Shown here in pieces: positions 2,292-14,548 of a stretch of DNA of 15,456 nucleotides; position 1 is the first letter of the stretch, and the number at the start of each line of letters is the position of its first letter. The notes beneath the pieces were generated by a model that did not search any database, was not told where the DNA came from, and worked only from the letters and a program-made list of their open reading frames with translations. The position numbers were made by a program, and so were the translations under genes. The DNA is taken from the IMG/VR virus record IMGVR_UViG_2698536485_000022, one strand, 5' to 3'. Source of the DNA: a virus (Duplodnaviria; Heunggongvirae; Uroviricota; Caudoviricetes).

Positions 2292-2319
2292 TATCCCGGC
2301 TGCACCCGGGAGTAATATA

Positions 2320-4836: not shown

Positions 4837-5199
4837 TTAATGACCTGCTGCGCGTAGTTTTCCGTCAGGTTCACCGGCAAGAGTCAGTAATTGTCCCTGG
4901 TCTTCCTGCAGAATAGTCAGGCGACCACCGCGATTGACATACATCGGCGTTTCGGTGGTGTCTTCTTCGGAAATTTTCCCGCGGTTAGTCGGGCGAACAT
5001 ATGAGAGTTTGTGTTTGATTTTCACACGGTTCTCATCAAATGGTTCGATTTCCAGGTTGAGTGAGACCTTACCTTTGGTTTTCGTGTTCATCACACCGGA
5101 AGCGACTTCACTGAGAACTGCGCCGATTTTGGTTTCAAATACGCCGCCGTCCAGCTCCCCGATAAATGCCTGCACATCAGTACTGCGTTCGCTAGCCAT
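4837..5199 (-). CDS. YfdP-like small prophage protein (120 aa)
   Basis: Track ORF 4837-5430 trimmed to ATG 5199, which has AGGAG 7 nt upstream (MASERSTDVQAFIGELDGG...). The 77-codon upstream extension overlaps structured RNA and looks non-coding. Confidence 0.55.
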   Translation of the reverse strand: MASERSTDVQAFIGELDGGVFETKIGAVLSEVASGVMNTKTKGKVSLNLEIEPFDENRVKIKHKLSYVRPTNRGKISEEDTTETPMYVNRGGRLTILQEDQGQLLTLAGEPDGKLRAAGH

Positions 5200-5247
5200 T
5201 TTGCTGCTCCTCATCATATCGACCCTGCAAGGTCGGTTGGTTTCTCC

Positions 5248-5336
5248 ACAAAACAGAGAAGAACACCTGCGGTGGCAGCCGCCCGGATGGATTGGGTTAT
5301 GAGCCCGTCGTCCGGTGATGCTCTTCTCTGTTTTGT
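5248..5336. repeat. perfect 15-bp inverted repeat (ACAAAACAGAGAAGA / TCTTCTCTGTTTTGT) flanking a 59-bp GC-rich spacer with nested hairpins
   Basis: Arms at 5248-5262 and 5322-5336 are exact reverse complements. The spacer contains CCGGA ... TCCGG and GCGG ... CCGC pairings. Lies 50-140 nt upstream of the yfdP-like start. Confidence 0.8.
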
Positions 5337-5400
5337 AAAAAGAGCGGTACCAGCCGGAAGCAAGGGTACAAACTGGTACCGCCAAAGCAGTGGCTGTTGT
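5334..5400 (-). ncRNA. candidate DicF-like sRNA ending in an intrinsic terminator (tL-like)
   Basis: Minus-strand RNA forms GCGGUACCAG-(19 nt loop)-CUGGUACCGC (5344-5353 / 5373-5382) followed by UCUUUUUAC. The 5' part CUUUGGCGGUACCAGUUUGUACCC resembles the DicF core UUUGGCGGUAUCAGUUUUACUCC as I recall it. Sits downstream of the pL-like promoter, as dicF does relative to dicA. Confidence 0.35.
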
Positions 5401-5799
5401 GGTGGGGTTGTCACTCAGGCGTATGGTCAACCTGACAATCCGGTGTCCTCAACGGGGAAAGAGTAACCCCGCCATACTTACCGCCGCGCCATTTCGCGGA
5501 TTACCACAACGCTGAGAGCACTTAGCCAGTTACGGCACCACACTTTGTCGCGGCTCCATAAATGCCCTCATCGTTGCCCCCTGGTCTCTTCCCTGGCGTC
5601 AAACCGGATCGCCGCGCTGGTTAGGCGTCTTATCAGCATCCTCATTGACTTGCACATTCCGGCTACCTGGTTTGTTTGCCCGAGCAAGGAGTGGATTATC
5701 CCCTTTAACGTCACCAGACCGCTAACGACGCATGTGCCATACGCCGTGTTACAACCAAATTTTGTTTAATCTTGCCTGTGTTGTGTTTCTTTTAGATAC

Positions 5800-5827
5800 A
5801 TTATGTATCCCGAGGGTACATTGTCAA
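5800..5827 (-). promoter_or_regulatory. candidate early-left promoter (pL-like) with overlapping palindromic operator
   Basis: On the minus strand: -35 TTGACA (5822-5827), 16-nt spacer, -10 CATAAT (5800-5805). Palindrome GATACA-TTA-TGTATC (5795-5809) overlaps the -10. GGTACA half-site at 5815-5820. Confidence 0.45.
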
Positions 5828-5865: not shown

Positions 5866-6540
5866 TTAGGCCTTTATTATGTATCTTCTTGGTTTTCCTG
5901 AGAAAATCACTGTACCAATTATAGAGCAATTACCGTTGATCTTAATGTAAGGTTCAGGCCAGTTTGGGTTTAATGCTTTGAGGTAACGCTGTGTTCCATC
6001 TTCTATCAACCGCTTGAAGGTGGTTTCGCCTGTATCGTGCATCAATGCAATAACGTCGTCACCGTGGCAGGCAGGGACTTCAGGATCAACAAAAATCATG
6101 TCTCCCGGGCGGTACTCATCAATCATTGAATCACCAATCACCCGCAAGATATAAGTCATTTCGCCACAGGGTACAGGGCAGGGGTAAGTTTCTGCTGTGC
6201 TCAAATCAACCTCAGAATAGCCAACTTCTTTCCATGCTCCGGCCTGTACCCATGATATGACAGGGACTAACGTTATTTGTTTGTTAGTGATTGAAACATC
6301 AGGTTTTTTTGTGATGTTCGTGGTCTGGTGTTCTTGATCAAGCCATCCGACAGGCAGGTCGAAACATTTTTCGATGTGCCGCGCCATGCTGTCACCGATA
6401 TTTTTAGTAGCACCATCTCCCATAAACCTGCTGGTCTGGGTTGGCTCGCGATCAATCATGGTGGCAAAGGAAGAATTCCCGCCAACACCATCTCTCAGTT
6501 TTCTGGCGTTAGACCGCCGGATGTCATGGACTGTTTTCAT
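5866..6540 (-). CDS. cI: CI-type prophage repressor (N-terminal HTH, C-terminal S24 LexA-like autopeptidase)
   Basis: 224 aa from ATG 6540. C-terminal domain has the Ala-Gly cleavage site (VQAGAW), catalytic Ser in VIGDSM and Lys in TFKRL. Divergent from the cro-like gene. Confidence 0.85.
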   Translation of the reverse strand: MKTVHDIRRSNARKLRDGVGGNSSFATMIDREPTQTSRFMGDGATKNIGDSMARHIEKCFDLPVGWLDQEHQTTNITKKPDVSITNKQITLVPVISWVQAGAWKEVGYSEVDLSTAETYPCPVPCGEMTYILRVIGDSMIDEYRPGDMIFVDPEVPACHGDDVIALMHDTGETTFKRLIEDGTQRYLKALNPNWPEPYIKINGNCSIIGTVIFSGKPRRYIIKA

Positions 6541-6630
6541 AAAGAAATTAAAACCTTTGTACCGATAAGGTACAAGTATCTTGAAGGTTCATCTCAATCA
6601 TGTAATATGTATACCGGAAGTACATATTGT
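6541..6630. promoter_or_regulatory. divergent immunity-region promoter/operator segment (pRM / pR equivalents)
   Basis: Perfect palindrome TTGTACC-GATAA-GGTACAA at 6557-6575 and related TACA-TAT-TGTA at 6621-6631. Candidate pR hexamers TTGAAG (6581-6586) and TAATAT (6603-6608). Confidence 0.55.
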
Positions 6631-7426: not shown

Positions 7427-7814
7427 ACAGTTTAACAACACACTACCGTCGCTCGCAACTGATTGCGCTTCCTGTACCGGGTGGAAAAGCGAAGGTGGAG
7501 TATTGCTATGCAGTGAATGTACCAGGTGACAGGGAAATTGTAACCCACAGCTTTGCAGAGTGGGCTGTGGGTGATTTCAACCGGCAGAAGGAGACAGTCC
7601 TTTGCGACAAGTTAACCGCTGGTTCAAAGATCACTACGGAGTGCCCGTCAGAGTCATTCGTTGGGAGCCGGAAACACAACGGGTTATCTACCTCCGTGAA
7701 GGCTATGAACATGAATGCTTCAGTCCGCTCGAACAGTTTCGTCGTAAATTCAGGGAAATAGAGGTCGGTCATGAGCCTGTTAATGACATCCCAGCCCATT
7801 GTGATAAATCGTGA
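7423..7814 (+). CDS. uncharacterised early gene with a frame switch (frame 1 open 7423-7761; frame 0 open 7575-7814)
   Basis: ATG 7423 has GGAGAAA upstream and overlaps the previous stop. Frame 0 has AAGGAGA followed by TTG at 7602 and encodes [54 protein letters not shown]. The frame-1 tail after about 7600 is low-complexity (Ser/Asn-rich). Confidence 0.35.
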
Positions 7815-8763
7815 TCTTGCATGCCGTATTGGTCTGAATGAGGCAATTGTGTTGCAGCAGCTTCATTACTGGCTGAATGAAACGAATTCAGGCACTGAGC
7901 ATGGCGGAATTCGCTGGGTTTATAACACGACAGAACAGTGGCTGGAGCAGTTTCCGTTCTGGTCAGAGTCCACTCTGAAACGCACATTTGCAAGCCTGAA
8001 ATCACTTGGGGTTTTGCGTCGCGAGCAACTCAATAAATCGAAGCGTGACATGACCAACTTCTACACGATCAACTATGAAAGTGAGCTTTTAGAAGAGGTC
8101 AAAGTGAACGAATCCATCAGGTCAAAATGCACTTCTCCATCGGGTCAAAGTGACCTGATGGATGGGCGCAAAATGACACGATCCATTGGTTCAAAACGAC
8201 ACGCTGTCATCGGGTCAAAATGGCCCAATGATCTTACAGAGAATACAACAGAGATTACTACAGAGAATAAAACCTCTTCTCGTCCGGACGCTTCGCAACC
8301 GGACACGCAAACGGCTGAACAGGAGTTTTTAACTCGCCATCCTGATGCGGTTGTATTCAGCCCTAAAAAGCGCCAGTGGGGAACGCAGGATGATTTGACC
8401 TGCGCACAGTGGCTCTGGAAAAAAATCATCGCCCTGTACGAGCAGGCCGCCGAATGTGACGGCGAGGTGGTTCGTCCCAAAGAACCGAACTGGACAGCAT
8501 GGGCAAACGAAATTCGCCTGATGTGTGTGCAGGATGGTCGTACTCACAAACAAATCTGCGAGATGTACAGCCGCGTCAGCCGCGATCCGTTCTGGTGCCG
8601 TAACGTGCTCAGCCCGTCGAAGTTGCGGGAAAAATGGGATGAGCTTTCCCTGCGCTTATCGCCGTCCGTCAGCACGCACACAGAAAAACGTGAAGACCCG
8701 TACTTCAAAGCCAGTTACGACAACGTGGACTACAGCCAGATCCCGGCAGGATTCAGGGGGTGA
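7771..8763 (+). CDS. replication initiation protein, O-like (replisome-organizer / DnaD-like N-terminal domain)
   Basis: 330 aa from ATG 7771 with GAGG Shine-Dalgarno. N-terminus [36 protein letters not shown] ... TLKRTFASLKSLGVLRRE is typical of phage replisome organizers. Position after cro/cII. Confidence 0.75.
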   Translation: MSLLMTSQPIVINRDLACRIGLNEAIVLQQLHYWLNETNSGTEHGGIRWVYNTTEQWLEQFPFWSESTLKRTFASLKSLGVLRREQLNKSKRDMTNFYTINYESELLEEVKVNESIRSKCTSPSGQSDLMDGRKMTRSIGSKRHAVIGSKWPNDLTENTTEITTENKTSSRPDASQPDTQTAEQEFLTRHPDAVVFSPKKRQWGTQDDLTCAQWLWKKIIALYEQAAECDGEVVRPKEPNWTAWANEIRLMCVQDGRTHKQICEMYSRVSRDPFWCRNVLSPSKLREKWDELSLRLSPSVSTHTEKREDPYFKASYDNVDYSQIPAGFRG

Positions 8764-13911: not shown

Positions 13912-13987
13912 GGCCCTTTAGCTCAGTGGTGAGAGCGAGCGACTCATAATCGCCAGGTCGCTGGTTCAAATCCAGCAAGGGCCACCA
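13912..13987 (+). tRNA. tRNA-Ile (anticodon CAU, ileX/ileZ-like); tRNA-Met not formally excluded
   Basis: 76 nt: GGCCCTT acceptor stem, TAGCTCAGTGG D-arm, anticodon loop CTCATAA (CAT at 13945-13947), T-loop TTCAAAT, 3' ACCA. Close to the E. coli ileX sequence as I recall it. Confidence 0.85.
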
Positions 13988-14067: not shown

Positions 14068-14144
14068 GCGTTGTTAGCTCAGCCGGACAGAGCAATTGCC
14101 TTCTAAGCAATCGGTCACTGGTTCGAATCCAGTACAACGCACCA
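14068..14144 (+). tRNA. tRNA-Arg (anticodon UCU)
   Basis: 77 nt: acceptor GCGTTGT/ACAACGC, anticodon stem ATTGC/GCAAT with loop CTTCTAA (TCT at 14102-14104), T-arm ACTGG-TTCGAAT-CCAGT, 3' ACCA. Confidence 0.85.
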
Positions 14145-14548
14145 CACCACACTTATCTGCCCTGACTCTCTTTTGCGGGCTTTTTATTACAGGAAAGACA
14201 CCGGACAGTGAAATGTTAAATGCCTCACAATTCAGGCAGTTGACTGTTGCCTGACATGCTGAGCGTTTGTTAAAAAAATCCTGCATGATGAATCCCCCTG
14301 AGCGGCGGGGCATAATGACAGATGTTTGGTTGCGTATTGTATAGGCAAGTTGCGGATTCTGTCTGGTCATTGCAGAATTCACCGGGAGGCACCCGGCATC
14401 ATGCTGTATACAGAGATTAGGCATATATCCAGGCTTCTCATCGCAGGAGCCTTTTTACATGCAAAAAAAAGCCCGAGTGGGTTCGGGCAACAGCATGAGA
14501 TACTTGCATTGTCATTTTTATCGTGTGGATTTTAACCAGGGTTTATAA

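Follow-up and report, generated by a model that had tools for sequence, protein, structure and literature searches.

The RNase III hairpin of the phage lambda N leader is a long hairpin in the pL transcript, located just ahead of the first gene. Leader structures of another kind are the E. coli thrS operator and the tRNALys-like element of HIV-1, which mimic an anticodon arm and have a known partner protein. In the dicBF region of prophage Qin, RNase III sites have been documented on both sides of DicF, an RNA subject to RNase III and RNase E processing, and one such site is listed in the dicF-dicB intergenic region, some 36 nt past DicF (PMC5371410 Table S1); the same site table has no entry for ymfH of e14. 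RNase III can accommodate about 22 bp of double-stranded RNA (PMC6212723). The element analyzed here shares with put of HK022 that it is a structured, cis-acting RNA and that the early leader containing it comes from a lambdoid phage without N; put differs in that it consists of two stem-loops of about 70 nt in total, present in the copies putL and putR and located before the terminators (PMC9378689).

The window, by which we mean the whole stretch of 15,456 bp that was analyzed, is a lambdoid prophage of E. coli and is 100% identical to sequence of strain 13E0725. Inspection of the letters alone (the sequence-only reading) had drawn attention to a perfect 15-bp inverted repeat with a 59-nt spacer just upstream of the yfdP start and had considered it unlikely to be due to chance. 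Both points were borne out. Positions 5248-5262 read ACAAAACAGAGAAGA, positions 5322-5336 are the exact reverse complement of this arm, the spacer is indeed 59 nt and the end of the left arm is positioned 49 nt upstream of the yfdP ATG (5199, minus strand). The arms can be lengthened to 25 nt at 84% complementarity, and the 15/15 repeat is the longest inverted repeat of the window with arms at most 200 nt apart. A search for the 15-mer elsewhere, run on the whole window at up to two mismatches, returned the two arms only, where 0.04 matches were expected and two were found in 0 of 200 shuffles. Another perfect inverted repeat, of 13 bp with a spacer of 26 nt (8112-8124 and 8151-8163), is located inside the ORF 7771-8763 of the rightward operon.

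In the minus-strand RNA the repeat closes an 89-nt three-way junction as its helix P1. On and around the transcript in which it is embedded, the following features are found in the direction of transcription:

5866-6540, minus strand: ymfK, the cI/LexA-type repressor gene, upstream of the repeat and on the same strand
5854-5837, minus strand: terminator after ymfK
5827-5800, minus strand: pL-type promoter TTGACA-16-CATAAT (promoter scan, 11/12 matches)
5802-5821: operator palindrome TATGTATCCCGAGGGTACAT, overlapping the pL-type promoter
5395-5520, minus strand: structured domain of the leader, with GUUGUGGU/ACCACAAC as closing pair of segments and with homology to the part of Qin that immediately precedes dicF (locus L253)
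5337-5382, minus strand: intrinsic terminator GCGGUACCAG...CUGGUACCGC followed by UCUUUUU (hairpin 5382-5344), directly abutting P1
5317-5336, minus strand: 5' strand of P1, transcript ACAAAACAGAGAAGAGCAUC, pairing with 5248-5267
5283-5315, minus strand: P2 arm, made up of P2a, an internal loop and an apical hairpin
5311-5315 with 5283-5287, minus strand: helix P2a, CCGGA/UCCGG
5294-5306, minus strand: apical hairpin of P2, GGG-CUCAUAA-CCC
5269-5282, minus strand: hairpin P3, GCGG-CUGCCA-CCGC, the hypervariable arm
5248-5267, minus strand: 3' strand of P1, GGUGUUCUUCUCUGUUUUGU, which includes the left arm of the repeat (5248-5262)
5240-5247, minus strand: conserved 3' tail GGAGAAAC
5220-5235, minus strand: small hairpin CGACC-UUGCAG-GGUCG, located after the junction and ahead of the Shine-Dalgarno sequence of yfdP
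4837-5199, minus strand: yfdP, first ORF of the operon, with ATG at 5199 and Shine-Dalgarno sequence GAGGAG at 5207-5212

The transcript order is thus pL, a DicF-precursor-like domain, a DicF-type terminator, P1-P2-P3, GGAGAAAC, the small hairpin, the Shine-Dalgarno sequence and yfdP. Since the pL-type promoter lies at 5827-5800 and yfdP is the first ORF, the repeat is part of an untranslated leader of about 590 nt. The near-consensus promoter and the operator palindrome that recurs by cro together indicate a repressor-controlled promoter of the pL type. Two operator-like copies, at 6573-6592 and 6606-6625, fall in the intergenic region that separates ymfK (cI) from the cro-like gene and share with 5802-5821 a 20-bp palindromic motif TATGTAyNCC....GTACAT. 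Together the three copies probably represent OL and OR of this type of immunity.

Folding of the minus-strand transcript, which had been suggested as a check, yielded the three-way junction with a minimum free energy (MFE) of -51.2 kcal/mol (z -7.9, ensemble frequency 0.32) versus -46.2 kcal/mol (z -5.3) for the plus strand. P1 comprises 20 bp and is extended to 25 bp with its flanks in the MFE fold, where GGAGA of the tail can add five pairs to P1 via the U-tract of the terminator. The nested complementary segments that had been noticed in the spacer are real as well: CCGGA/TCCGG forms P2a and GCGG/CCGC forms P3. The earlier idea of a long-range RNA stem in the 5' UTR of the downstream genes stands for the stem, although the repeat is just the closing part of a larger structure. 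The idea that this stem would sequester the ribosome-binding site of yfdP does not hold, because that site is located 35-40 nt downstream of the helix. Pairing of the P2 loop with the U(A/G)UGGAG tail into a pseudoknot was considered and discarded, since the variants of the loop show no covariation and such a fold would have an implausible geometry.

To follow the element beyond the window, homologues were collected from annotated phages, E. coli genomes, genomes of other species, IMG/VR contigs and metagenomes. They amount to about 130 distinct sequences from enterobacterial phages, prophages and metagenomes; the junction set comprises 75 unique sequences and another 37 distinct ones come from an independent metagenome sample. 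The alignment of the latter (A6) was fitted to the covariance model R1 and matches that were shadows on the opposite strand were left out. In both samples 94-95% of the cells were paired, versus 36-55% when the partners were slid. More specifically, in an alignment of 55 sequences 95.2% of the cells were in standard pairs (40-55% after a slide of one to three columns), changes on both sides were found in 11 pairs and 90 compensatory cells were counted where shuffles gave 28.9 and reached the observed value in 0 of 500 cases, with the proviso that such cell counts overstate the number of independent events because the sequences are mutually related. The same proviso applies to the metagenome sample (n=37), with 94.2% of the cells paired and 49 versus 19.7 compensatory cells (0/500 shuffles).

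The compensatory changes are found in P1, P2a and P3. In P1, 95% of the cells are paired across the 55 sequences, a result that was replicated in the metagenome sample, and double changes occur at stem positions 4 (A-U/C-G), 9 (G-C/C-G), 12, 15 and 16. The sequence-only reading had named a lack of covariation or conservation of the arms among homologues as a ground for rejecting its proposal, and these changes show the opposite. The P2a pair of alignment columns 28-52 is G-C in 32, A-U in 16 and G-U in 3 sequences, and P3 covaries at columns 60-94 and 61-93. RNAalifold recovered P1 and the P2 tip unaided; its alternative pairing of the junction lacks compensatory support, whereas P2a and P3 have such support. 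The perfect 15/15 match is a trait of the sequence class to which the window itself belongs; in most homologues P1 has a mismatch at stem position 11 and often another one at position 7.

The conservation is also strand-specific. P1 contains G.U pairs at positions 1, 3, 16 and 19 that are valid on the minus strand only, and position 19 is U.G in 72 of the 75 sequences. On the minus strand 95.5% of the pairs are canonical, compared with 88% on the plus strand, and model R1 scores 115 bits and 43.5 bits, respectively. Covariation and strand-specific G.U pairs together show that the helix is under selection as RNA, within the transcript that continues into yfdP. The arms and loops are conserved to very different degrees. 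The bases of the P2 internal loop (CGAC / AAUCCA) are nearly invariant, whereas P3 varies in length from 14 to about 41 nt and falls into several unrelated sequence classes. The tail GGAGAAAC is found in all 75 variants by construction, because GGAGAA served as the anchor for extraction; it is, however, kept even where P1 is not preceded by a U-tract, and its conservation is thus not explained by pairing with the U-tract.

The strand-specific pattern bears directly on the suggestion that the repeat is a protein-binding site in DNA. Since numerous pairs of the arms are of the G.U type on just one of the two strands, such a site is unlikely, and the operator motif of this immunity region is in fact a different sequence. 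That the element would instead be part of a protein-coding gene is suggested by the CDS annotations that several records place over it, namely ymfH in e14 and a 'hypothetical protein, frameshifted' in RefSeq. However, the total lengths (112, 113, 114, 115, 116 and 135-139 nt) do not vary by multiples of three, P3 differs by indels of 1, 2, 3, 4 and 23-27 nt with neither frames nor peptides conserved, most genomes annotate nothing or a frameshifted pseudogene, and the substitutions follow a helix pattern that includes G.U pairs. A coding segment or an operator palindrome is therefore highly improbable. The RefSeq CDSs and pseudogenes in question extend over both the junction and the STnc100-like domain that precedes it in those phages (L004 3002-3313, the ymfH of e14; L002 2915-3225; L003 2472-2791); going by the indel patterns, ymfH and the frameshifted pseudogenes are best read as annotation artefacts. 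An upstream ORF starting from (A/G)UGGAGAA was also considered and rejected: its length ranges from 3 to more than 38 codons, the frames shift and one variant has ACG for a start codon.

The element is widely distributed. It was found in 2,811 of 5,426 complete E. coli genomes (~52%), with a median of one place per genome, and the metagenome contigs carry a single copy each. A scan of the window with model R1 revealed no second copy in the pR or late regions. Moreover, the genomic context is constant: a cI/LexA-type repressor gene is present on the same strand, 165-2852 nt upstream, in 163 of the 170 homologous loci with enough flank. One contig, labelled Chryseobacterium sp. 18061 (L055), contains a typical enterobacterial junction together with the start of a yfdP-family gene and is likely a contamination or mislabelled.

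This distribution is hard to reconcile with a miniature inserted element, a possibility that had been raised because of the terminal inverted repeats. The 15/15 perfect arms do have the appearance of such repeats and the mosaic boundaries at both ends of the unit are sharp. However, an inserted block of this type is difficult to match with one copy per prophage in a constant context, with arms that covary through strand-specific G.U pairs and with flanks (UUUUU and GGAGAAAC) that show no target-site duplication. The sequence-only reading had also proposed to compare homologous prophages for presence or absence of the 89-bp unit as a block. When an artificial empty-site sequence was compared with the 5,426 complete E. 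coli genomes, no empty site in a single piece was present among the matches listed, every one of them that spanned both halves of the query being a two-piece, 251-bp, filled place. In the K-12 prophage CPS-53 the unit is missing owing to a large deletion, which also removed the immunity region, and not owing to a clean indel. An insertion can be discounted almost entirely.

Directly upstream of P1, the terminator occupies the position of the DicF terminator hairpin and aligns with the DicF terminator of prophage Qin. The 19-nt seed region of DicF is absent in the window, which leaves a seedless DicF-like slot. In SfV, ST64B, e14 and others the 220 nt that end at the terminator score as a sub-threshold STnc100, with 29-44 bits at a gathering threshold of 47. 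Among 95 distinct upstream contexts a U-run immediately precedes P1 in 92 and a strong hairpin is present in 83; the hairpin sequences differ among the contexts and have been replaced several times, whereas the U-run arrangement is conserved. On the other side of the junction, the first ORF differs among phages and can be yfdP, yfdR, xisE or rdgC-like. The conserved abutment of a terminator, with hairpins that have been replaced and a first ORF that varies, identifies the junction as an autonomous module of a mosaic kind that stands at the entrance to the early-left operon. The Qin locus itself contains no copy of the junction according to model R1.

Other parts of the leader appear to have been exchanged as well. 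The 5' part of the pL leader (5504-5760) is ~82% identical to sequence found beside late-region tRNA-Arg genes in other prophages and 88-98% (mostly ~90%) identical to segments of plasmids of about 100 kb; early-left and late operons therefore appear to swap leader RNA modules. The late region of the window contains two tRNA genes at 13912-13984 and 14068-14141 (Ile-CAU type and Arg), followed by a bona fide STnc100 at 14254-14462 (plus strand, 175 bits) that is directly adjoined by the anti-GcvB sRNA AgvB at 14464-14523 (minus strand, 56.6 at a threshold of 56). This layout is typical of the late regions of Stx phages, and the window has no stx gene.

In most variants a G+C-rich hairpin is found at the place of the small hairpin that follows the junction, often with a (U/G)GCAG loop. 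Within the window, G+C-rich hairpins with a (U/G)UGCAG loop recur at 2294-2311 (minus strand), 5220-5235 (minus strand) and 7543-7572 (plus strand), and one of them is positioned just ahead of the Shine-Dalgarno sequence GGAGAAA of a PrtN-family gene. The loop motif is also present in the P3 arms and in the post-junction hairpins of many relatives. It could represent a shared protein-binding or kissing motif.

A function can be proposed for the junction. Our main reading, to which we would assign a probability of about one in two, is that RNase III processes read-through transcripts of the terminator at the junction, in which P2 would serve as a hairpin for specific recognition. P1 would be available only to transcripts extending beyond the terminator, and these would fold into a helix of 20-25 bp, the size of an RNase III substrate. 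Cleavage at P1 would separate the upstream module of sRNA and terminator from the yfdP mRNA and would set the 5' end of that mRNA, and hence its stability and translation. In addition, cleavage could free the core of P2 and P3 as a small stable RNA. In this scheme P2, whose loops are invariant and whose tip resembles the initiator tRNA, would be the sequence-specific recognition element for a partner, and P3 an arm that is either tolerated or varies the specificity.

We argue for the RNase III role from two things only, the length of the helix and the analogy with the neighbouring, non-homologous helix in Qin. As to length, RNase III requires some 20-22 bp of mostly continuous double-stranded RNA, and P1 has 20 bp (25 with flanks), with one or two mismatches in the homologues. 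The mismatches at positions 7 and 11 could weaken or redirect the cleavage. RNase III alone does not explain the near-invariant loops of P2, nor does it explain the conserved sequence of P1. The invariance of P2 exceeds what the RNase III account covers and points to a specific partner.

A clue to the nature of such a partner may be provided by the P2 tip. The 14 nt CGGGCUCAUAACCC (C-GGG-CUCAUAA-CCC, 5307-5294, minus strand) are identical to the anticodon stem-loop of E. coli tRNAfMet, the sequence of which was verified in the genomes (100% identity in 5426/5426, annotated as tRNA-Met). Three consecutive G-C pairs and a CAU triplet are the defining features of the initiator anticodon arm. Because the first large scan had part of the hairpin fixed in its pattern, homologues were gathered anew with an anchor wholly outside the hairpin; all 59 sequences that continued with GGG (59/59) had GGG-C[U/C]CAU[AA/UA/UC]-CCC. 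GGG/CCC was invariant in 55/55 and 37/37 sequences. Loop positions 37-38 are variable (AA, UA or UC) and the defective copy in e14 lacks CAU. The match to tRNAfMet is confined to the top three stem pairs and the loop, as positions 27-28 and 42-43 of the real anticodon stem are unpaired here, and neither ARAGORN nor the Rfam tRNA model detected a tRNA cloverleaf. The identity with the anticodon arm of tRNAfMet is thus shown as a likeness of sequence, from which we infer a possible function in mimicry.

Considered as a function in its own right, the P2 tip might be a decoy or sensor, possibly trimmed out of the transcript, that titrates or senses a reader of tRNAfMet: a VapC-type nuclease, the 30S P site with IF3, or MetRS. 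The three G-C pairs within CGGGCUCAUAACCC and the invariance of GGG/CCC and CAU in the outside-anchored scan are in line with this, as is the finding that VapC toxins of the hosts, Shigella, Salmonella and E. coli, cleave tRNAfMet (PMC7180214). However, with just three stem pairs and the loop in common, no overall likeness to a tRNA, variation at positions 37-38, an e14 copy without CAU and a loop that fits the generic YUNR U-turn equally well, we consider a decoy or sensor unlikely. The two functions may also be combined in a mimic of the initiator-tRNA anticodon arm that would be made by the phage at the start of lytic growth, presented on a stem that RNase III can trim, and would act as decoy or sensor; candidate readers would then be a host VapC-type anticodon nuclease of abortive infection or the 30S P site. 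This combination appears quite unlikely.

The location of the junction also brings to mind processive antitermination, as performed by put of HK022 and by the EAR element of Bacillus; the nascent junction would bind RNA polymerase and promote read-through of terminators further down the early-left operon. The put RNA suppresses termination through binding to the zinc-binding domain of the polymerase subunit beta'. The element is indeed part of the pL leader of lambdoid phages without an annotated N gene, its loops are strongly conserved as in put (PMC9378689), and there are further terminator-like hairpins on the minus strand of the window, e.g. near 1887-1907 and 1843-1861. Against this, the junction is positioned downstream of, and not before, the conserved abutting terminator, and it occurs as a single copy without a pR counterpart, where HK022 has both putL and putR. 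Homology was rejected as well: putL was located in HK022, yet no similarity in sequence or architecture was found and model R1 gave nothing significant there. Antitermination by the junction is decidedly unlikely.

With its long closing stem and its 7-nt loop of the YUNR type, the three-way junction is further reminiscent of antisense-type regulators like the C4 RNA of P1 or the CI RNA of P4, that act in cis or in trans. A processed small RNA would then pair, through its U-turn loop CUCAUAA, with a target such as the start-codon region UUAUGAG, and many of the downstream first genes do begin with (U)AUGAG. However, no conserved complementary site was found, matches of 8-9 nt within the window are at chance level, the loop variants do not covary with the candidate sites and the Rfam C4 model has no match. 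This makes an antisense function very unlikely and leaves processing by RNase III, with P2 as recognition hairpin, as our preferred reading.

No Rfam family matched 5248-5336 at the gathering threshold, and the best matches over the element at E<=10 were noise (14-16 bits). The families checked included STnc100, DicF, C4, tRNA, riboswitches and ribozymes, none of which scored near its gathering threshold over this interval. Neither in Rfam 15 nor in the literature on ymfH, yfdP, mEp phages and tRNA mimicry was a description of the element found. Thus a strongly conserved RNA with covariation support is missing from Rfam, and current annotations wrongly present it as ymfH or as pseudogenes with frameshifts. 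About half of all E. coli genomes that are complete have it, and it also occurs in Shigella, Salmonella and Klebsiella phages, among them Stx-converting and serotype-converting ones. Across a large set of lambdoid phages the element marks where the early-left operon is entered, and it connects the leader of that operon with the prophage sRNAs of the DicF/STnc100 family. A testable handle is offered by the hairpin that resembles the initiator tRNA; if functional, this hairpin would constitute a new kind of tRNA mimicry in phage-host conflict or translation control. Should the mimic reading be true, the junction would be an RNA-based device for counter-defence or translation control of a kind not described for phages.

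A comparison with the described systems likens the element to the processing sites of phage leaders. The closest relation is that to dicBF of Qin, where the upstream leader domain and the terminator hairpin are homologous to those of the window and where a structured helix likewise follows the terminator and precedes the next ORF. However, in Qin this helix belongs to an STnc100-like domain and not to the junction described here, and the window in turn lacks the DicF seed. STnc100 (RF02076) and DicF (RF00039) supply the terminator that abuts P1 in relatives, whereas the junction falls outside both models. The sib/tI retroregulator of lambda has in common with the window that the full helix (here P1 and the paired U-tract) is formed only in transcripts that read through a terminator. 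The lambda N leader and sib have no sequence relation to the element, whose architecture is that of a three-way junction, whose side arm is highly conserved and for which no N/nut system is evident. Compared with put, the window has one copy, a closing 20-bp helix and no similarity. As in the thrS operator and the HIV-1 element, a leader hairpin copies the stem-loop of a tRNA anticodon arm, but in the junction this likeness is one of sequence and concerns the initiator tRNA. In conclusion, the element resembles the known processing sites of phage leaders, i.e. those of the lambda N leader, sib and dicBF, and is set apart from them by its three-way junction, its initiator-tRNA-like arm and its hypervariable arm.
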